Notes under the pieces: generated by a model | What the model saw: the letters and a program-made list of their open reading frames with translations, nothing else | Told to the model about the DNA's origin: nothing | The model's database searches: none | Source of the DNA: Escherichia coli O157 typing phage 4 | Sequence record: KP869102 | Direction: 5' to 3' (one strand) | DNA: 64,000 bases | Shown: positions 13,476-59,327 of the stretch, piece by piece | How positions within the stretch are numbered: position 1 is the first letter of the stretch | How the letters are laid out: each line of letters opens with the position of its first letter | Made by a program: the position numbers and the translations under genes

Positions 13476-14842
13476 ACGTCCCCCTCTTCGGCTCTGGTTT
13501 CAAAATCTTTCCTGACAATTTTGTCTAAGTCAGGGAATGTTGTATTGTAAAACTCTACGACTCGCGGGTCAACAATAATGTCAACTTCTCTTAGTGGACG
13601 CAACAAGTTTATTCCTTGTATTGTCTTAACTCTGCTCAAAGCGACATACGTCATCCCAGGAGAGAAAGCTCCGTTCTTTCCAAGGTCTAGGTTGTAACAA
13701 TCTAGCGTAAGTCCTTGACTTTTATGAGATGTTACGGCGTACCCAGATTTCAGAGGAAGTTGCTTGTATGACCCAATCACTACCCTCTCTATAAACTTCT
13801 CCATCTTCCTTTCTGCAATGTTGTATCTCTGAGATGGCTTATACTCGTTATTCTCCCACAACCTCTGCTCTATGTCAACCTGTGTTCCATCTTCAAGCTC
13901 TACCACCACCGCCTTGTTCTTAAATTTAACAATTGTGGCACGTGTTCCGTTAACATAATAAGGTACTTTGTGCGTCGGGTCAACATCGTTGGCGGTTATC
14001 ATAACTTTCATGCCAATTTTCAACTTCATCTCCTGCTCAACTGGCAGGGTGGAGGGAAACTTACCCTTCATTTCCCCAGTGTATACCTTCTCCGGGGCGT
14101 TGATGGCATCATAGAACCTTCTGTTCACTTCCTCTGCTTGTTTGTTGGTGGCGCAAATTGTGAGAGCGTCTGTTGGTACACCGCCTTTGTAACAGCGAGC
14201 ATTAAGTTCTGCTACAACCTCTTTTATGCGACGACCCTCACGAACACAGTTGAGCATTGTGGCAAATCGAATAGACTCCTGTCGGAACTGATCTATTAGG
14301 GCTATGTTGTGGAGGTCAAGCTCTTTCCAAGATTCGGTATAGCAACACAGGTCTGTATGGTAGAAGTTGAAGTAGGCTTCCTTCTCCATAGAAGAGACAA
14401 CAGGAGGTGCCTGGTAAAAATCGCCAAACAATATGACCTGTATGCCTCCGAAAGGTTTGTCATTTTTTCGAAGGAAGCGAAGTTTCCTATCCATCTCTAT
14501 AAACTTATCAGCACGGATCATAGAGATTTCATCGATAATCAGGATGGTAAATGCCTTGCTTTTCAAAGGCTTTGCTGTTTTTGCCCTTATTGCGGTCCAG
14601 TCTGACTCCATGCTCACACCTGCTGCAAGATCGAAGGTTCGGTGTGCTGTTGCTCCATTAACGTTTAAAGCGGCTACCCCTGTCGGGGCAACCGTTATGC
14701 AAGAGTCTCCATACATTGACTGGATCATGTTGATGAGGTACGTCTTCCCACAACCTGCGGGTCCTGAAACGAAGACATTCTCACCGCTCATGATTGCAAC
14801 GAGGGCAGCATCTGTGCCTACATCATACTGCCCTTTTTCCAT
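13472..14842 (-). CDS. SF1 DNA helicase, Dda/Pif1/RecD-like
   Basis: 456 aa; Walker A GPAGCGKT; IIDEISMI; C-terminal YAVTSHKSQGLTLD. Confidence 0.85.
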   Translation of the reverse strand: MEKGQYDVGTDAALVAIMSGENVFVSGPAGCGKTYLINMIQSMYGDSCITVAPTGVAALNVNGATAHRTFDLAAGVSMESDWTAIRAKTAKPLKSKAFTILIIDEISMIRADKFIEMDRKLRFLRKNDKPFGGIQVILFGDFYQAPPVVSSMEKEAYFNFYHTDLCCYTESWKELDLHNIALIDQFRQESIRFATMLNCVREGRRIKEVVAELNARCYKGGVPTDALTICATNKQAEEVNRRFYDAINAPEKVYTGEMKGKFPSTLPVEQEMKLKIGMKVMITANDVDPTHKVPYYVNGTRATIVKFKNKAVVVELEDGTQVDIEQRLWENNEYKPSQRYNIAERKMEKFIERVVIGSYKQLPLKSGYAVTSHKSQGLTLDCYNLDLGKNGAFSPGMTYVALSRVKTIQGINLLRPLREVDIIVDPRVVEFYNTTFPDLDKIVRKDFETRAEEGDV

Positions 14843-16047
14843 TACGCCTCCTCGTAAAGAATGTCGATAGTGTTACCGTCTCGGTCAACCACGTATTCAA
14901 TCGGGTCTCCGTCCTTGCGTGCTTCCGGAGCTACCACAATCTCATAGCGGCATGCACGGCACTTAGCGCTATTGTGTTGGTATGGCACACTAACCACATC
15001 TGCAGGGTCAACCATGACAGTCATTACAGTGCCGTAGCTCTTCGCATACTCTTTGCTGGCGCAGTGTAAGCCATAGGAGCACGCAGCTTCAGGATCATCC
15101 TCTACAAAGTTACGAGGCATGGATACAAAAGCACCTTGGTATTGTGGGACTTTACCACTGTGCCAATCCACCCACTTGCTACCGTTAAACTGAACCCCTT
15201 TGTAGCAAATGATTCGACCATCTTCTGCAATCTGAATATCATTGGCCTGCATAAAATCGTAGAGCATGTTTACAGATTTTGCAGAAGGATTGCGTAGCAG
15301 GCGAACGAGGAATTTCACATAGCGGTCATCCAGCGTTCCGTCTGCATAATCTTTCTCAATTTTCTTTGCAATGGTGGATCGCATCTCTACACCGTAGTAG
15401 TAGAGCTTACCATCTTTCATGATCAGGTTGTCTGCAAGTGTGGTGAACTCATTCTTGCGTTCCAGCCAGACAAGGATTTCACCAATTGCCTCGTCATATT
15501 CCTGAACAGAGATATGGTCGAAGACTTTCTGGTAAACTTCCTCACTTTCGCTGCGGCGAATTTCAAAAATGCCTTCGTTGCAGGTGATCTGGAGGAGTTC
15601 CCCACAAATAACTACCAAAGGCTCGATGCTTCGAGTTTGTTGCTGAGACACACTGCTCACCACCTCCAGCACCGGATCTTTGACTTCTACTAAAGGTTCT
15701 TCTGACTTGATTGCCACCCCAGTGAACCCCACACCGTGAACAACACACAGTGGGTATACCACGCCCCAACGTTTAACGGAACCTTCGCCTAAGTCTAAGA
15801 TCATGGCGTACTTACCATTATCTTCCAATCCATAGCGGAATAAACGGGCCTCTTCGCGGGTTTCAAAATCCTCACGGGTGTAGCAGACGCTGTCACGGTC
15901 AGGATCGAACAACTCTGGGGCACCCACTGCCAGTGTCCAGGTTGTGTCGCCTTTCTCAATGGCACATGTGAAACCCTTCTTCTCAAGTTCTGCACGGCGG
16001 TCTCGTGCTTCTTTACGGGTTTTGAAATGTTCGTAGATGAAAATCAT
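14842..16047 (-). CDS. hypothetical protein, putative rIIB-like (by position next to rIIA-like gene)
   Basis: 401 aa; ATG with AAGGAGA RBS; the contig overlap places it directly downstream of the rIIA-like gene; no diagnostic motif. Confidence 0.5.
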   Translation of the reverse strand: MIFIYEHFKTRKEARDRRAELEKKGFTCAIEKGDTTWTLAVGAPELFDPDRDSVCYTREDFETREEARLFRYGLEDNGKYAMILDLGEGSVKRWGVVYPLCVVHGVGFTGVAIKSEEPLVEVKDPVLEVVSSVSQQQTRSIEPLVVICGELLQITCNEGIFEIRRSESEEVYQKVFDHISVQEYDEAIGEILVWLERKNEFTTLADNLIMKDGKLYYYGVEMRSTIAKKIEKDYADGTLDDRYVKFLVRLLRNPSAKSVNMLYDFMQANDIQIAEDGRIICYKGVQFNGSKWVDWHSGKVPQYQGAFVSMPRNFVEDDPEAACSYGLHCASKEYAKSYGTVMTVMVDPADVVSVPYQHNSAKCRACRYEIVVAPEARKDGDPIEYVVDRDGNTIDILYEEA

Positions 16048-18762: not shown

Positions 18763-18779
18763 TTAATTGACATGCCTGA

Positions 18780-18956: not shown

Positions 18957-18963
18957 GCCATGA

Positions 18964-19876: not shown

Positions 19877-19895
19877 TGATAATTCAGTTAAAAAA

Positions 19896-20315: not shown

Positions 20316-20354
20316 GGTGTTTTTACCTCTTAGTTAATTTTCTTACAACTTCCC

Positions 20355-20383
20355 TTTAAAAAAGAATATAGCAAAACTGCCGA
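20355..20383 (-). promoter_or_regulatory. sigma70-type promoter (TTGACA-17-TATATT on minus strand)
   Basis: Reverse complement gives TTGACA, 17-nt spacer, TATATT upstream of the 20315 start. Confidence 0.45.
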
Positions 20384-20460
20384 TCCTTGTCAATAAGGAT
20401 AGCATAATTTTTATGTGATCAAGGGGCTTTATTGCCCCCCTGACCATGTAACTTGTTGTA

Positions 20461-20724: not shown

Positions 20725-20784
20725 GATGTTTACCTCTTTATGCGGTTCTGATTAGTGGGCCTTTTGGCCCGTGTCATTATCTTA

Positions 20785-21057
20785 TTACTTATGGCGGCAG
20801 AATTCAAGCGTTTTTAATTGATAATCTTCCTCAGCCTGGAGTACGACCGCCTCGATCATTTCGTTGGCATTGTTAAAGCCATAACCTTTAGCGAAATCAT
20901 CCGCGCCACCTTCGTGATCATGTTCTGCGTTCATCGCTTCCACAAAATGGAATTCCAAATTGTTGAGGTAGGGGCTTGATGTTCCGTCCTCTTTTTCGAT
21001 GAGATCCCAAATAGCATTAAAACGTGATTCTACTTCTTGATTAATCCAGCTTGACAC
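20785..21057 (-). CDS. hypothetical protein
   Basis: ORF track 90 aa. Confidence 0.5.
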   Translation of the reverse strand: MSSWINQEVESRFNAIWDLIEKEDGTSSPYLNNLEFHFVEAMNAEHDHEGGADDFAKGYGFNNANEMIEAVVLQAEEDYQLKTLEFCRHK

Positions 21058-21268
21058 AGTGTTTTCCTCTCTTCTGGTTGTTGTGTGGGCACTTTTGCCC
21101 CTTCAAGATAAATGTTACCCCACCCCATGGCAGATGTCAACGGTTTTTATAGTTCTTATATGACAGGCAGGCCCGGTGATTGTCTCCCCCCGTCGCCAGG
21201 TGCCTGCCGTGAAACAAGTATAACAAAAAACAGGACCATTGCAAGCCCTGTTTTGTAGTTTATAAATA

Positions 21269-21460
21269 TTATATTTTTTCGCCTATGTAGTCCGGTCGGT
21301 TTTTCTCTGTCATGCGCTTTAGCAATTCTTGCATGTTGCTTATGGCTTGTAGTGTATCCCCTTCCAGGCTTGAATCGACATAATCAGGATCGTCTATGAC
21401 CTTTCTATGATTATGATAACGCAGTACCGCCAATACCTTTCTGACTTGTTCGATATTCAT
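21269..21460 (-). CDS. hypothetical protein
   Basis: ORF track 63 aa. Confidence 0.45.
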   Translation of the reverse strand: MNIEQVRKVLAVLRYHNHRKVIDDPDYVDSSLEGDTLQAISNMQELLKRMTEKNRPDYIGEKI

Positions 21461-21472
21461 TTTTACCGCTCT

Positions 21473-21607
21473 TTAAAACAAGGTGCCAACCGTTTCCAAT
21501 AGATCACTGACTGCCAGGACAATACCGATCAGCACATATCTAACCATAAGGGGAAAGAGCGCCAATATTGCCACCACAATCCCCAAGGTGATAATTATCT
21601 TTCTCAT
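21473..21607 (-). CDS. hypothetical 44-aa membrane peptide
   Basis: Manual ORF MRKIIITLGIVVAILALFPLMVRYVLIGIVLAVSDLLETVGTLF; below the track length cutoff; abuts the upstream gene. Confidence 0.35.
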   Translation of the reverse strand: MRKIIITLGIVVAILALFPLMVRYVLIGIVLAVSDLLETVGTLF

Positions 21608-21609
21608 GG

Positions 21610-21903
21610 TTAACGGTTCACGTAAGTTTTCCCGTTCACGGTTATGGGCAGATCCTCCAGGTCTGGATCTTCCTTAAGGTCGCGAGCAAGCTCACCGCAC
21701 CGGATACCCTCGAATCCGTAGTACTCTGTTGTGCCGTCCTTAAAAGTTTTAGCGGCAAGGCATAAGCGATAAGTAACCCCGATTTGATTGACGGCATGAA
21801 TATCCGTTAGATTAACCTCTTTTGCCAGCTCTTTAGCCATTACAGGCGCATTAAGTCCAACAACCAGGGCAACCACTGCGATCATCTTTTTCATTGTGTC
21901 CAT
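21610..21903 (-). CDS. hypothetical secreted protein (N-terminal signal peptide)
   Basis: 97 aa; N-terminus MKKMIAVVALVVGLNAPVMA. Confidence 0.55.
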   Translation of the reverse strand: MDTMKKMIAVVALVVGLNAPVMAKELAKEVNLTDIHAVNQIGVTYRLCLAAKTFKDGTTEYYGFEGIRCGELARDLKEDPDLEDLPITVNGKTYVNR

Positions 21904-21985
21904 CCTCTTTCTGCTACGTTTAAGGCGGCGGTAACCGCCTGTTTATGCTTTGTTGGTTAATTTTCGGGTATAGGTATAAATTAAA

Positions 21986-22201
21986 CTATGCTGTACGCTC
22001 AACTATAACAACGGCTTGAGGGATCTCACCTTCAACCACTATCAAGGCTTTTTTCTGCGTGATAGATATCTTTACCCGCTTCAGCGTGGCGGTAAAATCT
22101 TTCATTTCGTCACGTGGTGTTTTAGTGCAATACCAGATCTCAGGCTTGCCGATCTGTAAGTTGCGTAAAAATTCTGTTTTGCCTGTTTTGTTAGTGATCA
22201 T
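21986..22201 (-). CDS. hypothetical protein
   Basis: ORF track 71 aa. Confidence 0.45.
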   Translation of the reverse strand: MITNKTGKTEFLRNLQIGKPEIWYCTKTPRDEMKDFTATLKRVKISITQKKALIVVEGEIPQAVVIVERTA

Positions 22202-22210
22202 TTGGCAACC

Positions 22211-22315
22211 TCACCCGATACCGTTGGAAGACAAGATCGCATTAGCCATGGTTGCAATCAGGCCAATACCCAGGGCAATAACCAAGATCACTGCATCGAT
22301 TAATTTCTGTTTCAT
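22211..22315 (-). CDS. hypothetical 34-aa membrane peptide
   Basis: Manual ORF MKQKLIDAVILVIALGIGLIATMANAILSSNGIG; weak RBS. Confidence 0.35.
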   Translation of the reverse strand: MKQKLIDAVILVIALGIGLIATMANAILSSNGIG

Positions 22316-22392
22316 GGTGTTTATTCTCTTCTGTTAGTAACCTTATTCATGGGGCCGCTACCACAGCCCCAAGGTAAGGCAGCTATGTGCTT

Positions 22393-22638
22393 TTAGTGTT
22401 TCATTCCAACCATCGCGGCACGGATCGCCGTAGTGCTGTACTTGAAGCCGTCCGGGGTCTTATCTTGTCCGGTTAGCTCCAGAAAAAGCATCATATCCCG
22501 CGCCGCATCATTACGATTAGCATTGGCGTTAATAAAGCCTTGGGCCAACCGGTACAATGACTCATCGTTATTAATCCAAAGGCTTACATTCCAATGAGTT
22601 TTGTTTTTGTAACCGTTATAACCTTTATTGCTTTTCAT
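22393..22638 (-). CDS. hypothetical protein
   Basis: ORF track 81 aa. Confidence 0.5.
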   Translation of the reverse strand: MKSNKGYNGYKNKTHWNVSLWINNDESLYRLAQGFINANANRNDAARDMMLFLELTGQDKTPDGFKYSTTAIRAAMVGMKH

Positions 22639-22729
22639 GGTGTTTACCTCTTCTTTGTTCCAGGTGGCGGATCATTCTACCACCTTATGTATTATGCTTT
22701 GTTAGATGGTTGTTTGTTGTCAAACTATT

Positions 22730-22909
22730 TTACCGATAATCATCATATGCTTTATTTACCTGGCGAATATAACATTCAAAAGCCAAATCAATAGATTTAT
22801 ATTCACGGATATACTCACCATAGGAAACCACATACATTTCTATAGCTTCCTCATATGCGAGGAGAATAGAATCTAAGCCTACGATCTCAGTCTTTGCAAT
22901 AATAGCCAT
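22730..22909 (-). CDS. hypothetical 59-aa protein
   Basis: Manual ORF MAIIAKTEIVGLDSILLAYEEAIEMYVV... with RBS AAGAGGA upstream. Confidence 0.45.
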   Translation of the reverse strand: MAIIAKTEIVGLDSILLAYEEAIEMYVVSYGEYIREYKSIDLAFECYIRQVNKAYDDYR

Positions 22910-22985
22910 GATTTTTTATCCTCTTTGTGGTTGGTGGGGTTCGTTGCCCCCTTTGATTTATATATTACAGTCTTATATGGTCATG

Positions 22986-23219
22986 TCAACTATTTTCAAA
23001 AAATTTTTCTGCTGTGATATTCTTCCCGGTAGGGTTCGCTACTTTCAAAATTTTATCATGCACTGGACGCCCAAAAGAATAAGCGCCGTACACAGTAAAC
23101 CAATAATCGCCGTCAGGTTGTACTATTACTGCCGCATATGGTACGCCTTTTTCGTTTTTGCTGACAAAATAGATCACGTTGCCATTAATAGCCTCGGCGC
23201 GTTTAATTTGTTCCATCAT
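22986..23219 (-). CDS. hypothetical protein
   Basis: ORF track 77 aa. Confidence 0.5.
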   Translation of the reverse strand: MMEQIKRAEAINGNVIYFVSKNEKGVPYAAVIVQPDGDYWFTVYGAYSFGRPVHDKILKVANPTGKNITAEKFFENS

Positions 23220-23275
23220 GATGATTTGCCTCTCTTTATTTTCATAATTGGGGGGCCTTTTCGGCCCCGCCAGGT

Positions 23276-23626
23276 TTATTTATTGATAGCGTGCAGCGGG
23301 AAAGGTACGCCAGGTTGATAGATAACCTTTACAACCTCATCAGGACAAAAGAAGTTGCAGAACTCACCGCAATAGGCCTCATCCTCTTTCAACTCTTCAT
23401 CAACATACTCAAAAAAGTAGTCGATGCTTGGATAATCTTGACCAGGGTTATAATCAACCATAGTGAGGACCAGTTCAAGATCATTGCGGATGATATGCAT
23501 ACCAGCTTTTAAATACTTCGCTTCCATTTTTACTACATCGCCAGCGGTAACAATAGCCATGGTTTTAACTCCTGTTTCTGTTAATGATTGGAGGCATAAC
23601 CCCCCTCGACAACTCTTATTATCCAT
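23276..23626 (-). CDS. hypothetical protein
   Basis: ORF track 116 aa. Confidence 0.5.
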   Translation of the reverse strand: MDNKSCRGGLCLQSLTETGVKTMAIVTAGDVVKMEAKYLKAGMHIIRNDLELVLTMVDYNPGQDYPSIDYFFEYVDEELKEDEAYCGEFCNFFCPDEVVKVIYQPGVPFPLHAINK

Positions 23627-23785
23627 ATTGTAGGGCTTGATGCAAGTACTTCTTTAAAAAATTTTTAAGTGCCTTGGAGGCCGCTGTAACGCCAAAATAA
23701 TAAAGGCCATGCAACCGCATAGCCTTTATGTGATTATATCGCTGCAGGCCCTGCTAGGGGCCTTATTTTGCATCATTTGCCGGAA

Positions 23786-24094
23786 CTATACAGAGAAAAC
23801 ATCGTTCACAATAGCGATCACAATGCCGCCCACCTTGTCACGGTCAACAATGCACAAATCACCATAGATCATGTGGTAGTCTGGATGATCTTTCACGGAA
23901 TAGTCAATGAGCGTTTTCTTGTCGTCCAGCTTTGTAACTTCCATTCTCATAACGATATGAGAATCATCAAAGGCATTATTCCGAAAAGTCATAGCCTGAC
24001 CACCAGGGCACCCAGTGATCTCCACTTCCACACCGTCTACGATCTGACCATCAAAGAAATAAAGATTATTAGCCAGGATAAACATGTTTATCAC
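23786..24094 (-). CDS. hypothetical protein
   Basis: ORF track 102 aa. Confidence 0.5.
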   Translation of the reverse strand: MINMFILANNLYFFDGQIVDGVEVEITGCPGGQAMTFRNNAFDDSHIVMRMEVTKLDDKKTLIDYSVKDHPDYHMIYGDLCIVDRDKVGGIVIAIVNDVFSV

Positions 24095-24177
24095 TCCTTG
24101 TTAACTGCGTGTTATTTTACCACGATTAAAATTTACTTTACTGATGGCCCTGGCGTCAAGGCCATCTAAAAATAAAT

Positions 24178-24378
24178 TTACAGGCCTACAATCTCTTTGA
24201 TTCGTTTAACTGCTGCCTCAGCGCCTTGGGGGTAGAAATTATGGTAACCGATCACGCGAGTGATACTAATCGCAGTTTGATGATCTTCATAATAGCCCTT
24301 GAAGATTTCTTGACCGTCAATCAGCACGGCAATTTTTTCTTCTTTTTTGAAGTTAATAACGCGGATATTGTTGCTCAT
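24178..24378 (-). CDS. hypothetical protein
   Basis: ORF track 66 aa. Confidence 0.45.
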   Translation of the reverse strand: MSNNIRVINFKKEEKIAVLIDGQEIFKGYYEDHQTAISITRVIGYHNFYPQGAEAAVKRIKEIVGL

Positions 24379-24493
24379 TTTGTTTCTCCTTTCTGGTTTT
24401 TGTGTTGGTGGGGATTAGCTCCCCGTTGATTATTATTATCCATATTTCGGACCGGATTGCAACACCCCGGAAGAAAAATTTTTTGAAAAAGTT

Positions 24494-24517
24494 AGGCCCC
24501 CAGGGATCGGGGGCCGT
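24494..24517 (-). terminator. intrinsic terminator
   Basis: Hairpin GGCCCCC-AGGGATC-GGGGGCC preceded on plus strand by an A-rich run. Confidence 0.5.
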
Positions 24518-24519
24518 TA

Positions 24520-24639
24520 TCAGTTACTTACAGCGATAAAATACATCCCTACGCCTAACAATATTTCAAGGGCGATGATCTCAAGCCATACCATAACCCG
24601 GCGCACCTTATCGGTGCGGGGCTTATCCTTGGTTGTCAT
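24520..24639 (-). CDS. hypothetical 39-aa membrane peptide
   Basis: Manual ORF MTTKDKPRTDKVRRVMVWLEIIALEILLGVGMYFIAVSN; strong RBS AGGGGGAGA. Confidence 0.45.
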   Translation of the reverse strand: MTTKDKPRTDKVRRVMVWLEIIALEILLGVGMYFIAVSN

Positions 24640-24881
24640 CGTCTCCCCCTTTCATCCTGGTAGTAGTGACGTGGTTTACAATGGCCCCCAGGAGTACCAT
24701 CACCACGCACATCACAAGAAAAATTATCTCTGTCGTTGTTCGATCCATTGTTATAAAATTCCTTAAGATCAGGCCTGAAAATAAAGCGTTCGTTATTGAA
24801 TCCATCACGCCAGGCGGCTGGCTTCAAATCTTCATCAAAGGGATTAATTAACGTGGTATTATTTAAACGGCTGGCCCACAT
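24636..24881 (-). CDS. hypothetical low-complexity protein
   Basis: ATG at 24881 with GAGAGGAA RBS; preferred over the RBS-less overlapping frame 24623-24808. Confidence 0.4.
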   Translation of the reverse strand: MWASRLNNTTLINPFDEDLKPAAWRDGFNNERFIFRPDLKEFYNNGSNNDRDNFSCDVRGDGTPGGHCKPRHYYQDERGRR

Positions 24882-25263
24882 ATTTTCTATTCCTCTCAAA
24901 TAGGCGATCCGCCTCAGTTAAACAAATCTCATGGGCGTGATCTCTGGTTTTAGCTTCATCGAAAACCTGTTGTGCAAGGCTGCAGCGTAGGGAGACTGGA
25001 AGATCACTATAATAGGCGTTGACAAATGTTTGCGCGTCATACAGGTCGGAAAATACTTTACCCTTTCTATTATCGCCTTTGTCAACAATTGCAAGGATAA
25101 CAAGTACAATAGTTGCAACCACCCCCAGGAAAATAGATATAATAAACCATAAAAAGGCGGATCTACCCATCTTGCCAGCGATCCAGGCGTTAAACAAGGC
25201 AACTAATACGGCCAAAATAATAAATTCCATTCTATGTACCTCTTTTGCAGTTCTGTTTAACAA
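24859..25263 (-). CDS. hypothetical membrane protein
   Basis: 134 aa; two hydrophobic helices (FIILAVLVALFNAWIAG and FLWFIISIFLGVVATIVLVILAIV). Confidence 0.5.
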   Translation of the reverse strand: MLNRTAKEVHRMEFIILAVLVALFNAWIAGKMGRSAFLWFIISIFLGVVATIVLVILAIVDKGDNRKGKVFSDLYDAQTFVNAYYSDLPVSLRCSLAQQVFDEAKTRDHAHEICLTEADRLFERNRKYVGQPFK

Positions 25264-25294
25264 TAAGGCGGCAAATATGCCGCCTGTTACCTGA

Positions 25295-25675
25295 TTAAAA
25301 ATTATCGCCGTAAATCTTTCCGCTTTCTGCCCACACCACCACGCGGGGCATACTATCCCACACGTCTTGTTTTAGATTGAGCGCGTGCAATTCTTCGGTG
25401 GTGCCCATACCAGGCACGGGCTGATTGTATACTGCAAAACGACCACCTGCATAATCATAGGCCAGGGTTAAATCACACTGAATCATCTTTTTGATCATGG
25501 CGTTGAGCATAGCGTTAGCCGCATACTGGTCACGTTTTAAAGGCAACTCTTTGATTAGTTTGCGATAGTTTTCAATGTGATCGCACACTGTTTCACGTGG
25601 AAGATCTTTCATATCCTCGCGAAAGGTAACCAGGTTAAACATAACGGTGTCAATAGCTTTAGTAGTGTTTTTCAT
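25295..25675 (-). CDS. hypothetical protein
   Basis: ORF track 126 aa. Confidence 0.5.
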   Translation of the reverse strand: MKNTTKAIDTVMFNLVTFREDMKDLPRETVCDHIENYRKLIKELPLKRDQYAANAMLNAMIKKMIQCDLTLAYDYAGGRFAVYNQPVPGMGTTEELHALNLKQDVWDSMPRVVVWAESGKIYGDNF

Positions 25676-25766
25676 AATGTTTTCCTCTTTGTTTTGTGTG
25701 GGGCAAACGTCTTGCCCCCCCTTGAGTTTTAATATAGCAAGTTTTTAGATTATTGCAACACTTTAT

Positions 25767-26295
25767 TTATGAAAAACTCATCTCTCCATATTCATCCACA
25801 TCAAACCGCCAATCATTGGCCTCAATAAGGCCGATCAGGTTTTCGGTAGTGAACTGTTCTAGATAGGCCTCCTCCAGGTCTACGTAAACCTTGCGGGATA
25901 GCTCCCGTACCGTCTCGGTGATCAGCTCTTCCAGGTCTTCCACTTTGTTTTCTTGTTTGGCGGTCAGATCTAGCCAGGTGGTATCAATGTATCCGCTTAC
26001 AGTGTTTTCATGGCTGTAATGGCTGTACTTGTCGCGTTCAATACTGGCTGATAACTCGCCATCGTGCATTGTGCCAAACAAGTGACGAATTGATCGGAAC
26101 TTGGTCAGGGCCTTTACTTTACGCAAGAATTTTTCTAAATCCACGTTTTCAGCACTGATTGACGCGCCGTCACCCTGGCACCAAAAGCCGGACCAATGTA
26201 CATCGGTATCTTCAAGGCCGTACTCTGGAAAAACTTGCTCTTTATAATATTCAATTACACTTTCTGCGAAAAAATCCTCTCCGCTGTGTTCTTCT
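25767..26295 (-). CDS. hypothetical protein, N-terminus cut off by the assembly gap
   Basis: Track reports 125 aa from an internal GTG, but the frame stays open upstream to the N-run at 26296. Confidence 0.5.
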
Positions 26296-26305
26296 NNNNN
26301 NNNNN
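26296..26305. other. assembly gap (N10)
   Basis: Run of 10 N. Confidence 0.95.
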
Positions 26306-26448
26306 CTTCTTCTCAAGTTCTGCACGGCGGTCTCGTGCTTCTTTACGGGTTTTGAAATGTTCGTAGATGAAAATCATCTTGGTCTCCTTATTTGATGTTA
26401 TTCTTTGTATCGATCAGTTCACGGTATTCAATCATAGCAGGAGTGTCC
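26306..26448. repeat. exact 143-bp copy of 15977-16119 (contig-end overlap)
   Basis: Identical sequence by eye; contains the start of the 14842-16047 gene and the stop of the rIIA-like gene. Confidence 0.85.
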
Positions 26449-28370
26449 CGATATTTCAAGCCCACATGCTTCAAAAGTGGATATTTCTTTTCCAATCTTG
26501 CAATATAGGCCTTCCCGCACTTAACCCGGTTGGCGATTAAGATTTTGGCACGATGATTTAGCTCACTGTGCTTCCACGCGGTGTTACCTTCCCACTTGTG
26601 GAAATGTGGCCGATAATTTCCAAAATCCTGCATGGGGATAATTTTCCCTAATTGTCTATACAGGCTGTCATATGAAGTTTCATTTGCTGCGCGAGTCAGT
26701 AAGAATTTCCAGGCGTCCTCTTTCAACAAATGTTCCACATTTTTCTCTGTAACATACTGGCAATCAGGATTAGTCCAAAGCAGACGGGATTCTGATACCA
26801 GGTACAGGTCTTCCCCTTCAGGAATCTGGAGTGCCGCACGCACACGGTCATAATTTTGCTGGTAGATGTTACTCAGCTGTCCCAGCCAACAACTTCCACG
26901 TTGGATATCACCCTCATAAGGAATGCAGTGCTTAATCTTCTTGAACTCTGCCTTAGTAATACGTTCACGGCGGAAGTAACCATCCTTCTCAAGCTTTTTA
27001 ACCCAATAACCTGGCTCGTAATGAGTTTTTGTTTCACCTTTCTTCGCAGGTCGGCGAGGGAGCTCTGATAACAATTTGACCGTATCTGCAAAGAACGGGT
27101 GGTGTGCCGCTTCTTTAAACTCTTCCACCAGATCCGTGTTACGGCAATAGAAAACGTTGCGTCCGGTGATCTCGCTTAAGTAGTTACATTTATTTCGGTT
27201 ATATTTGCCGTCTCCGTCGTTAAATACAAGGTATACACCTCGTAAGAACTCCGACTTTCCGTAACGAGCATAGCCTATGCGGCCTTTATTTAAGCCGCCA
27301 GCGAAAATTTCACAATCGCCTAAGTCGCCAAGCCCTGTTTCTTCCCAACGGTTCCACATAAAGTTTTTGCCGAAGATGTGTCCGAACACCCCACTATTCT
27401 TCATCATTTCACGTGCTTCTGCTGAGGTTTTTGCCGTCTCCAGTTCTGCAACAACTTCTGCCCCGCGAAGACGTATACCTTCTTTAACAAAGGCCTCCAG
27501 GCGATCCTGGAATCCACCGTCGTCATGGCCCTCTATGGTCCATTCACGCCCAGGGTTAATATTGCAATCCCCGATAGGAATTTCCACGCAGATTGCAGGG
27601 TAATCGGTCAATGTCTCCAGGAACTTAGAGCGGTAAGGTTGGTGACCCATCACAACACGGCTCTCATCAGAACTGGTATAACCTTTCAGGATGGTCATTT
27701 TCCAGCCATCCTTCTCGTAATGATACTGTGCCTCAACCTTGTCACCTTCTAACATCTTACTGGTCATGGGATCGGTGACGGTGAACGGAAACTTCGCATA
27801 GCGTAAGCACGATGCAATAGCAGTGCGATATTTCAGGACATGCTCTTTCTTAACATGAAACTGAACTTTTACCCCGTTGTGCTCTTCAGTCTTCCGCTCG
27901 CGGATCTTGGTAACGTTTGGGATACCCTGATCCAAGAACAATAGATATGTGCTTTCAACACCATTGTGCACACTGATAACATCGAAAGTGTCCACCATGC
28001 TGAACGGAGCCTTTGAACCAACACCTTTATTACCTACCAGAGCATTACTGTTGCGCTTGGTTGACTCTCCAAGGTTCATGAACGTGTTGCGGACCATCTC
28101 TTCTGACATGCCCAATCCAACGTCCTGCACAAAGAAGTATGGTTCAAGGTCTGTAGGAGAGTGAATGATGATCGGTACATCACCCCGTCCAGACTCAACA
28201 TGGGAGTCTACAGCGTTGAAGATTGGTTCACGGCAGCTTGCCAGCACCTTATCTTCGTAAATCCCTTTAATAATTAGCCCAAAAGTCTCTTTGTTCAGAG
28301 AAATTGAGCCCCTGGTGACCTCCATATTTCCGGTTAGCACTGCTTTAGTTTCATTACTGTTTACAATCAT
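26388..28370 (-). CDS. rIIA: rIIA-like protein with N-terminal GHKL-type ATPase domain
   Basis: 660 aa; GHKL N-box REPIFNAVDSH, G1 box QDVGLGMS, G2 box GNKGVGSKA. Confidence 0.7.
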   Translation of the reverse strand: MIVNSNETKAVLTGNMEVTRGSISLNKETFGLIIKGIYEDKVLASCREPIFNAVDSHVESGRGDVPIIIHSPTDLEPYFFVQDVGLGMSEEMVRNTFMNLGESTKRNSNALVGNKGVGSKAPFSMVDTFDVISVHNGVESTYLLFLDQGIPNVTKIRERKTEEHNGVKVQFHVKKEHVLKYRTAIASCLRYAKFPFTVTDPMTSKMLEGDKVEAQYHYEKDGWKMTILKGYTSSDESRVVMGHQPYRSKFLETLTDYPAICVEIPIGDCNINPGREWTIEGHDDGGFQDRLEAFVKEGIRLRGAEVVAELETAKTSAEAREMMKNSGVFGHIFGKNFMWNRWEETGLGDLGDCEIFAGGLNKGRIGYARYGKSEFLRGVYLVFNDGDGKYNRNKCNYLSEITGRNVFYCRNTDLVEEFKEAAHHPFFADTVKLLSELPRRPAKKGETKTHYEPGYWVKKLEKDGYFRRERITKAEFKKIKHCIPYEGDIQRGSCWLGQLSNIYQQNYDRVRAALQIPEGEDLYLVSESRLLWTNPDCQYVTEKNVEHLLKEDAWKFLLTRAANETSYDSLYRQLGKIIPMQDFGNYRPHFHKWEGNTAWKHSELNHRAKILIANRVKCGKAYIARLEKKYPLLKHVGLKYRDTPAMIEYRELIDTKNNIK

Positions 28371-28867
28371 TTATTGCGCTCCTTGTAGTAGATATGGCTC
28401 CCGAATTGAGCTGTCCTCTGCATCTTTTTTGCCCATTTCGGTCGTACTTTGGTTGTATGGTAGTGTGTTGCTCCACCTGTTATATCCATAGCCATGTATG
28501 CAACATGGTTGTTATTATAGACCTTTAGAAGCATCTTTGCAAGACTTTTAGCGTGATCCCATGAATCTTTTTCTGTCACCTTAAAAGTTTTGCCGTGGTT
28601 TGTCCACGAAAACTGGTTAGGTTGGTAGACAATCTTTCTTATAGTGTCTGGGTATTTAGGGTGAGATTTCCTGTTTAATGTGGCAAACCCAGATGCCAGC
28701 ATACCCATCGTGCCATCCCCTCTAGCTTCCCTGTAGATATTACATGCCAAAATGTTTTCCTTAGTATCTGAGGGCTTGCAAGTATGATATACTTTTTGTT
28801 TTGGTGCTGCAACAACAGGCAGCGATAAAAATGCGCTCAAAATAATAGCAAAGATCTTAATTTTCAC
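28367..28867 (-). CDS. secreted cell-wall hydrolase, SleB/CwlJ (Hydrolase_2) family; endolysin candidate
   Basis: 166 aa; signal peptide MKIKIFAIILSAFLSLPVVAAP; motifs YREARGDG, ATLNRK, QPNQFSW, ATHYHTTKVRPKWA. Confidence 0.75.
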   Translation of the reverse strand: MKIKIFAIILSAFLSLPVVAAPKQKVYHTCKPSDTKENILACNIYREARGDGTMGMLASGFATLNRKSHPKYPDTIRKIVYQPNQFSWTNHGKTFKVTEKDSWDHAKSLAKMLLKVYNNNHVAYMAMDITGGATHYHTTKVRPKWAKKMQRTAQFGSHIYYKERNK

Positions 28868-28878
28868 AATAACTCCAA

Positions 28879-28903
28879 ATAGAAAATCCCCGCCGAAGCG
28901 GGG
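28879..28903 (-). terminator. intrinsic terminator (CCCCGCCGAAGCGGGG hairpin)
   Basis: Perfect stem-loop at 28888-28903 preceded on plus strand by AGAAAAT. Confidence 0.6.
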
Positions 28904-28915: not shown

Positions 28916-29296
28916 TTAATCGTAGTGTGCCAAAATCTCTCCATCGTTGCAAGTTCCCTCTACAAAGTTATGGAGATTCATGCACTCATCTTGATAGAAG
29001 AATTTACCGCTTTTCAGCCGTAAGCCAAACAACTCCGCATCTCCACGATGGCAAGCCTCTACAAGTTCATAGATTTCATACGGCAACTCTCCGTCGTCAT
29101 GGAAGAACCCAGCCTTATCGTTGACATAGATGAAGAAATAATCACTGCTATCGCAAGCGTCCAATATTTTAAACCAGATTTCATCTACATCTTTTTCTCG
29201 GATATCGATCACGCAAGTGGAGCTGCATTCGTACTCCTTCTCCGGCTCCTCGGTCAATACCACCAGGTAGTTTCCCCGCTTACCTACTTTAGCCAT
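28916..29296 (-). CDS. hypothetical protein
   Basis: ORF track 126 aa. Confidence 0.5.
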   Translation of the reverse strand: MAKVGKRGNYLVVLTEEPEKEYECSSTCVIDIREKDVDEIWFKILDACDSSDYFFIYVNDKAGFFHDDGELPYEIYELVEACHRGDAELFGLRLKSGKFFYQDECMNLHNFVEGTCNDGEILAHYD

Positions 29297-32983: not shown

Positions 32984-33065
32984 GAGTGAGTGCTCCTATG
33001 TTAGTTTTCTTTCGAATGGGTGCACTATATCGGAGATTTAGAGTAAAGTCAACACGTTTTTGATG

Positions 33066-33094
33066 TTGACATCTGTTGAGACAATTGATAAGAT
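33066..33094 (+). promoter_or_regulatory. sigma70-type promoter (TTGACA-17-TAAGAT)
   Basis: -35 at 33066-33071, 17-nt spacer, -10 at 33089-33094; sits inside the track-predicted N-terminus of the next ORF. Confidence 0.45.
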
Positions 33095-47295: not shown

Positions 47296-47562
47296 TTAAG
47301 CTTTTTGCTCTTCGTTTTTAACGTGGTCAGGGTGCTGGCAACCCCACCGGAGCGAGATGAATTTGCTAATAAGCTGGGGGCAAGCTACCGAAGGCGCGTA
47401 TATCCACGCATACCATTCAGGAAGCGTATCATTATACCCCATATGAATAAACACCCCAGTCATTACCGCCATGCCTATGTTCGACCATAGCTTAGATTGG
47501 GACACTTTCGTAGGGTCATCAGATGCCGCAACCAATCCCCATAAAAACTGAGTTAGTTTCAT
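47296..47562 (-). CDS. small membrane protein, holin candidate
   Basis: 88 aa; hydrophobic helix WSNIGMAVMTGVFIHM; lies between fibre genes. Confidence 0.4.
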   Translation of the reverse strand: MKLTQFLWGLVAASDDPTKVSQSKLWSNIGMAVMTGVFIHMGYNDTLPEWYAWIYAPSVACPQLISKFISLRWGCQHPDHVKNEEQKA

Positions 47563-48706: not shown

Positions 48707-49021
48707 TTACCTTTTACTATGCTCTACGAGCATGTGCAAAATCTTTTGTACATCAGCTCGGATACCGGAGACATCTGTCCTGACATCCTGCTTAAGGTCG
48801 TTAATATCGGCCTCTAGCTTGCTTAACCGGGTCTCGATAACGGAATCAAGTTTATCTTTTGTAACCATACTGTTTTTCACTAAGATGAGGTCTTTCTCCA
48901 GTTCATCCAACCTCTTGGAAATGCCTTTCCATTTGGTGTGCCACTGGTTGAAAGCCCATACACAGATCGGGACAACGGTACCCATGCAGATACCGTACAA
49001 TGCCGCCAAATCCAACTCCAC
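48707..49021 (-). CDS. small membrane and coiled-coil protein (holin or spanin-like candidate)
   Basis: 104 aa; N-terminal hydrophobic segment then charged coiled-coil. Confidence 0.4.
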   Translation of the reverse strand: MELDLAALYGICMGTVVPICVWAFNQWHTKWKGISKRLDELEKDLILVKNSMVTKDKLDSVIETRLSKLEADINDLKQDVRTDVSGIRADVQKILHMLVEHSKR

Positions 49022-58000: not shown

Positions 58001-58890
58001 CAGACACAATCCTCACTCAGTGTCATTGTTGCCGGGCCATAGTATGCACCAACCAGCAAACCATACTTACCAGCTACATAGCTGAGATCTGCGCCACAAG
58101 CTTTCAGCATTTCTGCCATAATACTTGCTGGGGCCTCATCCATATCGAACTCGCCATTAATTGTGTAACGGCGCTCACTGGTTCCGTCTGCGTTTTTTAC
58201 CGCCTCGTCGCATATGTTGGCAGCCTCCTTGAAGGACTCCCAGTTGATGGTTTCGTCAGGACATTTAAGGTACGTTCTTAAATAGTCTAGAATCACCAAG
58301 GCTGCGTTATTGGTGTACACCTCTTTACTGATACGAGGATCATAGCATTTTTTACCAACCTTAACGAGTGTAACGTTTGGCAACCCAAAAGGAAACTTGT
58401 TAGGGTCAAACTTGAAGCTGGCACGTAGCCAACTGATCCCTCTACCTATCATGTCTGGTGACCACGATGGGCAGTGTGTCCCCATGAAAGGATCAGCTGT
58501 TTTTCTGTCGTTATGTAGCTCCCACGATACCAAATCCCCATATGAGGAAATAGGATTACCGTCGATAAGTATATCCTCTATACCTTCCAAAGGGTGATTG
58601 GCAAGAACAATAGCACAATGGAGAGTTCTGTCTCTATCCTGCTCCAAAAACGCAAGCAATCCGGATGTGCGTGTCTTCCCATACACTACAGAGCAAGGTG
58701 CAGCAGAAGATCTGAGAAGCTTTTGTCTATCTTGCTGACTTCTGTAAGATTTGTTGCCCTCAAAAATCTTATCCAGAGTTCTGGTGGTAACAGTGTTCAG
58801 GCTGTCAGCCAGAGCTGCCTTGGATGCGTTCCAGTCATAACTTGAAGATCTTGCAGAAGCAACGATGTTATCAATCATTGCAATTGGCAT
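55051..58890 (-). CDS. lambda J-like tail tip / host-specificity protein with expanded coiled-coil repeat array
   Basis: 1279 aa; segments QGYFAITLIPH...YDFW...YYWYIRTTNAFGSSQFVE and NKYVAGIQLGMEG...FMVSANNFAVYNPGNG recalled as matching lambda J; central heptad repeats of about 300 aa. Confidence 0.75.
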   Translation of the reverse strand: MPIAMIDNIVASARSSSYDWNASKAALADSLNTVTTRTLDKIFEGNKSYRSQQDRQKLLRSSAAPCSVVYGKTRTSGLLAFLEQDRDRTLHCAIVLANHPLEGIEDILIDGNPISSYGDLVSWELHNDRKTADPFMGTHCPSWSPDMIGRGISWLRASFKFDPNKFPFGLPNVTLVKVGKKCYDPRISKEVYTNNAALVILDYLRTYLKCPDETINWESFKEAANICDEAVKNADGTSERRYTINGEFDMDEAPASIMAEMLKACGADLSYVAGKYGLLVGAYYGPATMTLSEDCVCGEVKIYPEASFDKRSNTITGRFTSPTKGYSETDFPSVFVPEWIEKDGERKIIDIDYRFVTSPYQAQRVSAIFLRRARAGRIIEVTCNMRGFKFKPGRYVTMDLPSIGIVGQEMRVLEWEFTKKGGVKVKLRQDAKEWNDATGQLPDSGDVDIPISPSGVAQPQNFRYSVLQAGEVTHGVLAWDNVGTYAQNIVQVRKNGEIVWTAQTVEQFVRVEGLTKGSYTATVVATSYKGGVSPEAYCEFNIQAPEAPVSVEVKQGYFAITLIPHSRDLASVSTQYDFWTSGMTRLPDTSDATVTSNATRMGVGSTWTSEGLQNDKVYYWYIRTTNAFGSSQFVECAAHCYTSIEDLMPQIDAEFKKTETYKELMSTLDSSIEEVENRVTELNKYMDGRVDEAFQQLGDRIGAVVTETTQKFEDVNGNITALDRKLVAAQNKFTNDLNTESGRLASLIETTNKATTDLLNKKTEALDEKLVAAKGELVEQLEGVESGYLAGDKTLDGKINTQRTELDASILSTNQATVDLLNRTSETLDQKISQTNATVSKNYTTLDGKITTAKTDLNTLIANTNKATTDLLNQKTSALSEQITSARGEISTNKQAIDALDGKLTSTKTALDATISDTNKATVDLINGTASAIRQELAVAKQEIMDDVGDVSEIRAAVATTSKAVTDLEGKVNAQWGTKIQVDSAGNKYVAGIQLGMEGSGGQVQSYFMVSANNFAVYNPGNGTATLAFAIKNNQAFLKDAFIENGTISSAKIAQEISSNNYDGNGYHKYGWYINKNGHAQFMDVWVKGNINASSGNFTGAVNATSGTFRGDVYANNGSFRGTIDATGGTFRGRVEASVIRANQFEGAIVAHRTYGDCPPVYNSQQRVCRWRWRYVDNVSGQGKNVTFFFKLNGTLSGSQLNVWIAGHQILAGKKYGNDNNGMCAVGITGLGEQTIDIVVEIYTPWSTSSVTGVAISCPTVVVSRSNSSFQGPWNESHD

Positions 58891-59327
58891 TAATACCTCC
58901 AGACATCAACAACGATAGAATCTTTCATGTCGAACATAAAGACCCCTTTATCACCTTTCGCCCAAATCTGGTTGTTCCAGAACACACCAGCGGTGAGCCC
59001 GTTCAGACCTTCGAAAATGACAATATCTCCACGCTGAACCTGTTTAGGAGTGTCCAGGCGAGTCATAAAGAAATCAAAAATAGTGGGCAAATGTGTGGTT
59101 TTGAAATGAAGCATGCACCATCTCTTGCTTTCCAACTCTGTTTTATACGTTCCTTCGAAGTTAGAAAGAAAATCTGTTCCGTATTGGGCATCAACACACT
59201 TAGCCGCAAAAGTGCAACAATCGTGGAATCCCCATTCAAAAGGTATGGTGGCCTCTTCGTCAAATACTTTCCACAACCTTTCTTGCCAGTCCACTAGACG
59301 AGGATGTGTGCTCATTAAACCTCCCAA
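58890..59327 (-). CDS. minor tail protein, possible NlpC/P60-like
   Basis: 145 aa; directly upstream of the J-like gene; Cys-containing FHDCCTFAAKC. Confidence 0.5.
   Translation of the reverse strand: MGGLMSTHPRLVDWQERLWKVFDEEATIPFEWGFHDCCTFAAKCVDAQYGTDFLSNFEGTYKTELESKRWCMLHFKTTHLPTIFDFFMTRLDTPKQVQRGDIVIFEGLNGLTAGVFWNNQIWAKGDKGVFMFDMKDSIVVDVWRY

Follow-up and report, generated by a model that had tools for sequence, protein, structure and literature searches.

Directly next to rIIA, Escherichia coli O157 typing phage 4 encodes a small cell-wall hydrolase with an apparent export signal, and the question raised by this locus is whether that enzyme is the principal endolysin of the phage or serves another purpose. 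The window analyzed here, the whole 64,000-nucleotide stretch of sequence record KP869102, comes from a Vequintavirus (rV5-like E. coli myophage) with 99.7% identity to phage ECML-10 and is a draft put together by scaffolding. A first-pass annotation had proposed a split lysis system, in which the hydrolase acts as a Sec-exported endolysin and small membrane proteins encoded about 20 kb away, between fiber genes, are its candidate holins. The evidence presented below favors a different role: with a probability of about 0.6, the enzyme is an accessory, Sec-exported SleB/CwlJ-type peptidoglycan hydrolase, most likely a lytic transglycosylase, and not the principal endolysin. Coordinates of all features are listed in Table 1.

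TABLE 1. Features of the window that bear on the role of the exported hydrolase (positions refer to the whole window; KD, Kyte-Doolittle hydropathy; TMD as in the text).
Feature	Coordinates	Strand	Remarks
SleB/CwlJ-type (Pfam Hydrolase_2) cell-wall hydrolase precursor, rV5 gene 2 orthologue	28367..28867	-	ORF, 166 aa
Glu47 codon, predicted catalytic glutamate (motif YREARGD)	28727..28729	-	Aligned to E of YGESRGE in 4F55/4FET
Signal peptide, aa 1-20 (MKIKIFAIILSAFLSLPVVA)	28808..28867	-	Predicted signal-peptidase-I cut after Ala20
GGAG ribosome-binding site	28873..28876	-	6 nt 5' of hydrolase GTG; read from sequence
Strong intrinsic-terminator hairpin CCCCGC-TTCG-GCGGGG + T-run	28888..28903	-	Directly upstream of hydrolase ribosome-binding site
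Sigma-70-like promoter TTGACT-17-TATAGT	33024..33052	-	Candidate start of leftward early/middle unit with hydrolase
rIIA (660 aa)	26388..28370	-	PHROG 612, E 6e-124; HATPase_c_3 domain
rIIB (401 aa)	14842..16047	-	Real downstream neighbor of rIIA
123-aa protein, two strongly hydrophobic TMDs	24862..25230	-	96% identity to BASEL bas56_0110; different scaffold contig
88-aa conserved fiber-module protein (rV5 gp29), holin candidate 1	47296..47562	-	PHROG 1322 'membrane protein'
104-aa protein (rV5 gp31), holin candidate 2	48707..49021	-	One N-terminal TMD + coiled-coil-like tail
DUF6950 protein, NlpC/P60 fold, tail module	58890..59327	-	Second hydrolase-like protein in window

The open reading frame, which starts with a GTG codon, matched the Pfam family Hydrolase_2 (PF07486) with a score of 70.4 bits (cut-off 27; E 2.1e-19). 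This match aligned residues 51-161 with positions 2-100 of the 100-position profile, and a further match was obtained with PHROG 938 ('endolysin'; E 1.7e-27). An AF2 model of the protein had a pLDDT of 87.6, and Foldseek searches with this model returned the SleB catalytic domain structures 4F55 and 4FET on top, with a probability of 1.0 and as the sole significant fold matches. Glu47 was invariant in the alignment (A2), the catalytic motif x-Y-x-E-[AS]-R-G-[ED] was present, and the family-invariant residues N43, Y45, E47, Q85-T89, D128, and W145 were all retained. These results indicated that the gene is real and that, by domain, fold, and catalytic residue, its predicted product is a cell-wall hydrolase. 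Both the signal-peptide-bearing Hydrolase_2 ORF of the first-pass annotation and its exact boundaries were confirmed.

The Bacillus SleB domains share the fold (TM 0.74-0.78, normalized to target) and the catalytic glutamate motif of the phage protein, although sequence identity is only ca. 24% and the N-terminal peptidoglycan-binding domain of SleB is missing. The SleB equivalog profile TIGR02869 scored 48.3 bits, below its cut-off of 236.5, with only profile positions 83-201 matched, and no second Pfam domain was detected in the protein. The substrate of the phage enzyme would have to be ordinary Gram-negative murein, whereas that of SleB is the muramic-lactam spore cortex. Many phage papers refer to Hydrolase_2 proteins as 'amidase,' but the entry for a solved SleB structure gives it as a (germination-specific) lytic transglycosylase.

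Export of the enzyme is predicted from its N-terminus, MKIKIFAIILSAFLSLPVVA followed by APKQK, whose sequence features follow the n/h/c layout of a signal peptide cut by signal peptidase I. It contains two lysines, a 12-residue Leu/Ile/Phe core (IFAIILSAFLSL; mean KD 2.7), and then P-V-V-A, of which V-V-A precedes the predicted cut and another alanine follows it. In the AF2 model, residues 1-16 had low pLDDT, and a spacer of ca. 30 residues separates the signal peptide from the catalytic domain. The hydrolase thus appears to carry a classical, cleavable Sec signal peptide, of the kind that characterizes Lys44-type endolysins. SAR (signal-anchor-release) endolysins retain an N-terminal TMD of weak hydrophobicity that is rich in Gly, Ala, and Ser and stays uncleaved. 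Because the h-region of the hydrolase is short and strongly hydrophobic and is followed by an AXA-type signal-peptidase-I site, identity as a SAR endolysin was rejected. A lipoprotein was likewise rejected, as there is no lipobox cysteine, and so was a virion-associated lysin: the protein has a signal peptide, its locus lies outside the structural module, and gene 2 is not tagged with 'MS evidence' where the genes of rV5 are tabulated.

Orthologues of the hydrolase in Vequintavirus genomes represent the same gene as rV5 gene 2 (98-99% identity in more than 100 genomes), and the protein was at least 95% identical across 115 phage records. While a word-indexed search yielded only 10 relatives, an exhaustive search of representatives made the whole family visible. 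Among the 150 nearest cluster representatives, 126 had a signal peptide. Equivalent signal peptides were found in homologues from Certrevirus, Seunavirus, a VivaForever-type phage, and a T5-like phage, and export-type N-termini were conserved in homologues of five phage lineages despite their differing sequences. Seunavirus and Certrevirus representatives (PVP-SE1 gp243, CB7_83) showed ca. 46-52% identity and shared both the Hydrolase_2 domain and the signal peptide. In T5-like phages (T5.083), Phapecoctavirus, and Nankokuvirus, the homologues are likewise small, consist of a single Hydrolase_2 domain behind an export signal, and are encoded away from a lysis cassette, but identity is lower (ca. 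35-40%) and their neighbors are different. The CHA_P1 protein differs in having a longer N-terminal anchor that is SAR-like or TMD-like rather than cleavable. For the CB7 homologue, a signal peptide has been predicted and toxicity in E. coli has been mentioned as data not shown (Buttimer et al., PMC7344957). Beyond this unpublished remark, a literature search found no biochemical study of a SleB-like phage protein.

An assignment as principal endolysin has to be weighed against the lysis genes of closely related phages. These phages encode a soluble, 156-aa lambda-R-type endolysin without a signal peptide (match to lambda lysozyme 1AM7 at E 3e-56), which was found in 114 phage records, nearly all of them Vequintavirus-type genomes. 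In ECML-10, the closest relative, a divergent 165-aa endolysin allele occupies the same locus. A purified 156-aa rV5-like endolysin of lambda-R-type description, LysECP26, has been reported to lyse Gram-negative cells (PMC9728275) and, by description, matches the common allele. Lambda R and LysECP26 probably share bond chemistry (lytic transglycosylase) and substrate with the exported hydrolase, but have an unrelated GH104-type fold and no signal peptide. In the relatives, the lambda-R-type gene lies on the strand opposite to the hydrolase gene, and a distance of ca. 70 kb along the record separates it from rIIA; the endolysin is therefore expected outside the window. Rz/Rz1-type spanins adjoin the terminase gene in relatives including ECML-10. 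Canonical lysis functions encoded elsewhere, which would speak against a split system built on the exported hydrolase, were thus largely found, although the lambda-R-type endolysin and Rz/Rz1 do not form one cassette. What stands of the proposed split system is the dispersal of the genes and the predicted Sec export; the role as principal endolysin is not supported in view of the lambda-R-type enzyme of the relatives. Dispersed lysis genes without a cassette have already been described for rV5, LL12, and CB7. The presence of two lysins in one genome has been reported for PVP-SE1/BME3, Phapecoctavirus, and CB7, and applies also to T5-like phages (T5.083); a separate canonical endolysin is present in both T5-like phages and Phapecoctavirus.

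The gene is flanked upstream by a hypothetical protein and a terminator and downstream by rIIA, whose start codon overlaps the hydrolase stop codon by 4 nt (ATGA). The reported adjacency to rIIA was thereby verified, and the overlap suggests translational coupling of the two genes. In Mangalyan, the annotation places a ribosome-binding site at the equivalent position, and the record of phage Murica carries a 'terminator' feature inside the 4.1-kb matched stretch. No ORF with a TMD was found adjoining the hydrolase gene, nor any on the same strand embedded in or beside it. The rV5 late-promoter-like motif has intergenic copies in the structural module, and no copy was found before the hydrolase gene. 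In the rV5 paper, the transcription unit runs through genes 10-1-238, and the unit with the hydrolase gene is one with sigma-70-like promoters; transcriptome data for rV5-like phages were looked for in the literature and not found. From the gene layout, we infer that the hydrolase belongs to an early/middle unit rather than to a late operon.

Neighborhood in the window has to be read with its assembly in mind, since the scaffold contains misplaced contigs. The rIIA-rIIB junction is unbroken in Mangalyan and C7, and in the window it is split by scaffolding alone. Small membrane-protein genes at 16-26 kb were accordingly rejected as downstream neighbors of rIIA, this stretch consisting of other contigs inserted by the scaffolding. 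A position before rIIA is common to the hydrolase genes of Vequintavirus and Seunavirus.

These observations are compatible with the following sequence of events for an accessory, exported hydrolase. The gene would be transcribed in the leftward early/middle unit together with rIIA/rIIB and replication genes, with a probably low expression in view of the strong terminator just upstream and the GTG start, and the ATGA overlap would couple its translation to that of rIIA. The signal peptide would route the precursor through SecYEG, after which leader peptidase would cut behind Ala20 and release into the periplasm a mature protein of 146 aa (16.9 kDa, basic, pI about 10). There, the enzyme could cut glycan strands via Glu47 without the need for a holin. 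Final lysis would be brought about by canonical proteins whose genes lie in other parts of the genome, namely the soluble lambda-R-type endolysin, Rz/Rz1 spanins, and a holin; the exported hydrolase would probably weaken or remodel the sacculus beforehand, or hasten its breakdown after membrane de-energization. A freely active periplasmic hydrolase should, however, be harmful before the late genes are expressed.

A role outside lysis, in which the enzyme remodels the wall from the periplasm in the early or middle phase and takes no part in terminal lysis, is possible but unlikely. Possible purposes would include loosening of the sacculus for cell enlargement, a block of cell division, release of muropeptides, and interference with superinfecting phages. 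Such a role would fit the placement of the gene in a unit with the rII and replication genes, away from late genes, and also the position of T5-like and PAK_P3-like homologues among replication or other non-structural genes, with no lysis cassette. It would also fit the retention of the protein in several families, no two of which share their canonical endolysin. Two observations nevertheless point to lysis: the adjacency, in sister genera, to a holin-like gene with two TMDs and to the rII lysis-timing genes, and the toxicity of the CB7 homologue upon expression, which fits a lytic activity.

The holin-like neighbor in the sister genera also bears on a more doubtful alternative, in which exported endolysin and pinholin form a second lysis pathway, redundant with the lambda-R-type system, whose membrane partner was lost or replaced in Vequintavirus and whose enzyme is activated when another holin collapses the proton-motive force. 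In Seunavirus (PVP-SE1 gp244; 54 records) and Certrevirus (CB7_82), a small ORF with two TMDs and a charged C-terminus directly follows the hydrolase gene, while in the window the hydrolase gene directly overlaps rIIA; otherwise, nothing substantive differs between these loci. The neighbor resembles a holin or pinholin, and this arrangement hints that the hydrolase is part of a real second module for lysis and more than an auxiliary enzyme. Endolysins that are activated by membrane de-energization after Sec or SAR export are well established, with fOg44 Lys44, P1 Lyz, and phage 21 R as examples. Like these proteins, the hydrolase is a muralytic enzyme predicted to reach the wall compartment through the host Sec system instead of through a holin hole. 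Each of them is, however, the only endolysin of its phage, whereas relatives of the window phage have a second, soluble endolysin, and the N-terminus of the hydrolase looks cleavable, unlike a SAR domain. Moreover, tblastn searches of the window and of the whole Mangalyan genome with the sister-genus gene returned nothing better than E 0.5. CB7_82 has been proposed to be a class II holin.

It is improbable that the hydrolase is the principal endolysin, with Sec as its export route and holins encoded ca. 20 kb away among the fiber genes as its trigger. In addition to the signal peptide and the intact catalytic domain, the label 'endolysin' in many database records would agree with this proposal, and the family is evidently suited to the task. 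Pseudomonas phage PAJU2 gp74 has the same catalytic domain and motif, but lacks a signal peptide and is encoded in a cassette composed of Q, a holin with three TMDs, the Hydrolase_2 protein, and an Rz-like gene, whereas the window protein is predicted to be exported and lies outside any cassette. Situated in that cassette without a signal peptide, gp74 must depend on the holin; as the sole endolysin of the cassette, it implies that Hydrolase_2 enzymes are fully capable of the main lysis role. A holin gene beside fiber genes also has a precedent in T4, where holin gene t follows fiber gene 38. Against these points stand the canonical soluble endolysin and spanins found elsewhere in relatives, the location of the hydrolase gene outside the late operons as judged by layout, and the properties of the proposed holins.

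Both small ORFs of the first-pass annotation were indeed present between tail-fiber and fiber-assembly genes, an arrangement also seen in relatives with named neighbors, but they adjoin no endolysin or spanin gene. Their description as membrane proteins held for the 104-aa protein, with one TMD (KD 1.9), and is doubtful for the 88-aa protein. The latter has a charged C-terminus and reached a KD of only 1.05 in its best 19-residue window, and by its sequence it is not hydrophobic enough for a membrane span to be assigned with confidence; Table S3 of the rV5 paper lists no TMD for this protein (gp29). The 88-aa ORF occurred in 368 phage records, adjoining tail or fiber genes wherever neighbors were named. 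Its gene lies within an operon behind a late-promoter-like motif, which would agree with a holin function. The 104-aa gene is the last of the fiber/tail-fiber-assembly operon and is followed by what we read as a terminator-like hairpin and by a late-promoter-like motif. Hydropathy values were compared with those of lambda S105 and S21, which served as a rough yardstick only.

Neither the 88-aa nor the 104-aa ORF matched a holin family in Pfam, NCBIfam, or PHROGs, and searches of Pfam and NCBIfam also gave no holin match for the 123-aa ORF, the rV5 gp129 equivalent, or the sister-genus ORFs with two TMDs. Specialists have either failed to identify a holin, as in the LL12 paper, or picked other ORFs: the rV5 paper favors gp129, and bas56_0110 of BASEL phage AlexBoehm, the counterpart of the strongly hydrophobic 123-aa protein (KD19 3.1), is annotated as 'putative holin.' The assignment of the two fiber-module ORFs as holins was therefore not upheld. 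The DUF6950 protein of the tail module is probably, by prediction, a virion-associated peptidoglycan endopeptidase.

Loss of catalysis or a new use of the domain, such as binding or inhibition in the periplasm by a protein resembling T4 Spackle, which is likewise small, periplasmic, and early, as the hydrolase probably is, is hardly credible in view of the retained catalytic glutamate and other family-invariant residues, the fold modeled with high confidence, and the toxicity of a homologue upon expression.

As a discovery, the accessory hydrolase has little value. Annotation of the gene dates back to the rV5 genome, and a description from 2020 covers its signal peptide as well as its conservation throughout the Vequintavirinae; protein, signal peptide, and conservation are thus already published (rV5 gene 2, PVP-SE1 gp243, CB7_83, T5.083); the occurrence of two lysins per genome has also been remarked on in several genome papers. 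For users of the window, it is relevant that the true endolysin and spanins fall outside it, that contigs are misplaced, and that a candidate with an NlpC/P60 fold is listed under a DUF label. More broadly, large, virulent phages of Gram-negative hosts related to rV5, PVP-SE1, CB7, phAPEC8, and T5 carry a Hydrolase_2 protein with predicted export besides a canonical endolysin. It is conceivable, though quite speculative, that the SleB-type transglycosylase, the sister-genus protein with two TMDs, and rIIA/rIIB go back to an ancestral periplasmic module for lysis timing, a second, Sec-dependent route parallel to holin, lambda-R-type endolysin, and spanins, from which Vequintavirus would have lost the membrane partner and in which the enzyme would be restrained by the rII proteins or by the membrane potential. 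If this were true, the 'membrane integrity' function of rII, which has long been obscure, would in these phages be matched by a definite enzyme.

The hydrolase gene preceding rIIA, an orthologue of rV5 gene 2, proved to be real. Its product matched the full length of the Pfam Hydrolase_2 domain (70.4 bits, cut-off 27; E 2.1e-19) and also PHROG 938 'endolysin'. In a PDB sequence search, the SleB catalytic domains 4F55 and 4FET were the sole matches and, because their YGESRGE aligned with YREARGD of the hydrolase, the catalytic glutamate is retained as Glu47. An AlphaFold model built from nine sequences had a mean pLDDT of 87.6, with disorder limited to the first ~16 residues, and its only significant Foldseek matches in the PDB were these same two entries (probability 1.0, TM 0.74-0.78 on target). 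It belongs to the Hydrolase_2 domain family but is not an equivalog of spore SleB, given a score of 48 bits versus 236.5 and the lack of a peptidoglycan-binding domain. Although several phage papers speak of the hydrolase as an amidase, the solved SleB structure is labelled a lytic transglycosylase in its entry.

The signal peptide claimed in the first-pass annotation was also recognized. As read from the sequence, the N-terminus (MKIKIFAIILSAFLSLPVVA/APKQK), with two lysines, a 12-residue hydrophobic Leu/Ile/Phe core and a V-V-A site, has the pattern of a predicted cleavable Sec signal peptide; a SAR anchor or lipoprotein was rejected on this basis. The predicted mature protein has 146 aa, a mass of 16.9 kDa and a pI of ~10. 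Export is predicted to be the rule in this family branch: homologues from four further lineages (see table) have N-terminal signal peptides whose sequences are unrelated, while a PAK_P3-like homologue had a longer N-terminal anchor. Searched exhaustively, a set of 1.84 billion cluster representatives yielded 11,334 relatives at E <=0.001; of the 150 nearest, 126 carried an N-terminal signal-like segment as judged by a crude test of hydropathy. A survey placed Hydrolase_2 among the domains that dominate Gram-negative phage lysins, 27.9% of which had predicted signal peptides (PMC8223927).

The 4.1 kb around the gene showed 99.7% identity to ECML-10, an Escherichia phage, as well as to three 'Campylobacter phage' records that lack annotation and are classed as Vequintavirus, and 98-99% identity to JES2013, Mangalyan and BASEL Vequintavirus phages. 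These matches, from 121 records in total, showed that the window derives from the genome of an rV5-like E. coli myophage. About two dozen MG0656xx records ('Campylobacter phage C7, C9, A112b' and others), which carry an UNVERIFIED flag, were near-identical to E. coli Vequintavirus genomes; their host labels are probably wrong. The window consists of four contigs linked by three 10-N linkers (16121-16130, 16441-16450 and 26296-26305). Real genomes have rIIB and rIIA side by side, and in the ungapped C7 record rIIA passes straight into rIIB, but the scaffold puts contigs 16131-16440 and 16451-26295 between the two genes. Window 15976-16120 duplicates 26306-26450 (144/145 positions identical), and 16451-26295 corresponds to one unbroken stretch of the JES2013 record (101851-111695). 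Because of the inserted contigs, genes at 16-26 kb are not true neighbours of rIIA, and gene neighbourhoods spanning the linkers are artefacts. The hydrolase coordinates are untouched by the scaffolding.

The first-pass annotation took the hydrolase for the phage's endolysin. However, it is not the main endolysin: a lambda-R-type endolysin was present in 114 phage records, almost all of which are Vequintavirus-type genomes. Mangalyan, a relative with careful annotation, has an 'endolysin' (record 71883-72353) that lacks a signal peptide, matches PHROG 90 and is clearly homologous to lambda lysozyme R (1AM7, E 3.4e-56); its I- and O-spanins (61124-61806) adjoin the terminase gene. Both spanins are also encoded by ECML-10 (L009), to which the window is most closely related. 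At the endolysin locus, ECML-10 carries an unannotated, divergent 165-aa lambda-R-type allele (L009:13914-14411) that shows 51% identity to the common allele and agrees with it in the first and last residues. A 253-aa HNH-type ORF (L009:14466-15227) follows, and the arrangement looks like an allele replacement tied to a homing endonuclease. A 68-aa ORF shortly downstream of the locus (L009:15291-15497, after the HNH ORF; L002:22417-22623 in Mangalyan) starts with a lipoprotein-like signal (MKDFLLAILFMAACLACG...), matches PHROG 4641 and could be a candidate lysis accessory protein. In the rV5 paper the lysin is Gp89, and the section on lysis makes no mention of gene 2. Purified LysECP26, a 156-aa lysozyme-like endolysin of the rV5-like phage ECP26, lysed 29/29 Gram-negative strains (PMC9728275); it fits the common lambda-R-type allele by size and description only. 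The parts of a canonical holin-endolysin-spanin cassette, which the first-pass annotation had set against its own reading, were thus largely found elsewhere in relatives, as a lambda-R-type endolysin and spanins, although dispersed and not as a cassette.

The hydrolase gene is gene 2 of its leftward unit, with rIIA, rIIB and replication genes downstream; its stop codon shares bases with the rIIA start (ATGA), and the rIIA ribosome-binding site (AAGGAG) lies within it. Just upstream of the basic hydrolase, 28916-29296 (minus) encodes a very acidic, Cys-rich hypothetical protein of 126 aa (rV5 gene 3, PHROG 12370), and a terminator stands between the two genes. Since only ~10 nt separate this terminator from the hydrolase ribosome-binding site, leaving no space for a promoter, transcription must come by read-through; this and the GTG start suggest a low level of expression. 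The T4-late-like promoter motif TGGTAAAATA, reported for rV5, was enriched in the window (17 observed versus 6.6 expected, one mismatch allowed), with copies in intergenic gaps ahead of structural genes. A motif scan of the window found none before the hydrolase. The rV5 genome is not known to encode homologues of the T4 late-transcription factors. No transcriptome of any rV5-like phage was found in the literature, so that we infer the timing of hydrolase expression.

Features of the hydrolase locus, promoter-like elements and related genes (L005, SPLA5a; L013, PVP-SE1; L004, P7_Pc)
Feature	Position	Strand	Details
Hydrolase ORF	28367-28867	minus	166 aa, GTG start, GGAG 6 nt upstream
Strong hairpin terminator	28903-28888	minus	six G-C pairs, TTCG loop, T-run
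Promoter-like site	33024-33052	minus	
Promoter-like site	33066-33094	plus	
TGGTAAAATA motif copy	24113-24122	minus	
TGGTAAAATA motif copy	48647-48656	minus	intergenic, structural module
TGGTAAAATA motif copy	54978-54987	minus	intergenic, structural module
TGGTAAAATA motif copy	60489-60498	minus	intergenic, structural module
Signal-peptide homologue			Certrevirus P7_Pc
Signal-peptide homologue			Seunavirus SPLA5a; annotated start truncated
Signal-peptide homologue			VivaForever-type phage
Signal-peptide homologue			T5-like DT57C (T5.083)
2-TMD protein, ~55-62 aa	L005:3536-3709		SPLA5a (Seunavirus), unannotated
2-TMD protein, ~55-62 aa	L013:2280-2444		PVP-SE1 gp244 (Seunavirus)
2-TMD protein, ~55-62 aa	L004:3477-3665		P7_Pc orf094 (Certrevirus)

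Two ORFs of 88 and 104 aa among the fibre genes had been put forward as holins. Neither matched a holin family in family profile scans. The 104-aa ORF (rV5 gp31), last gene of the fibre and fibre-assembly operon, has a single N-terminal TMD followed by a coiled-coil-like tail. The best 19-residue hydropathy window of the 88-aa ORF (rV5 gp29) reached a KD of only 1.05. The latter ORF, for which the rV5 gene table gives no TMD, is labelled 'membrane protein-holin' in one record. It is conserved among Vequintavirinae, phAPEC8-like phages and some phages of Aeromonas, 368 phage records in all, with tail or fibre genes as neighbours throughout in records that name them. Small membrane proteins adjoining receptor-binding fibres may instead act in receptor masking or superinfection exclusion, as does T5 Llp. 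The rV5 authors proposed gp129 (78 aa, two TMDs) as holin and the BASEL annotators bas56_0110, whose orthologue in the window (24862-25230, minus; 123 aa) has two very hydrophobic TMDs. This 'putative holin' belongs to a cluster of small proteins, predicted to be membrane-bound or secreted, on the misplaced contig (further members at 24623-24808, 21610-21903 and 21473-21607, all minus); one of the cluster is a 97-aa protein whose signal peptide is clear.

The hydrolase is most likely an accessory periplasmic lytic transglycosylase. It would be produced at a low level together with the rII proteins and reach the cell wall via Sec without a holin, while terminal lysis would be performed by the lambda-R-type endolysin, the spanins and a holin. 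The hydrolase could be more than a helper, since a Hydrolase_2 protein, although without a signal peptide, is the only endolysin in the textbook cassette of Pseudomonas phage PAJU2. Moreover, the hydrolase gene has a small ORF directly after it in Seunavirus (PVP-SE1 gp244, in 54 records) and in Certrevirus (CB7_82, for which the role of class II holin was proposed). The encoded 2-TMD protein, whose tail is charged and in the Seunavirus form basic, may be a candidate (pin)holin that partners the exported hydrolase, but a search of the window and of Mangalyan found no Vequintavirus homologue.

The first-pass mechanistic reading is therefore correct only in part. The 2013 rV5 paper already listed gene 2 as 'cell wall hydrolase, PF07486'. 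Homologues across all Vequintavirinae genera, and for the CB7 homologue a signal peptide and toxicity in E. coli (data not shown), were reported by Buttimer et al. 2020 (PMC7344957), and a 'two endolysins' pattern has been noted for PVP-SE1/BME3 and Phapecoctavirus. The hydrolase is thus a real feature of this phage, yet an ordinary one that had been described before.
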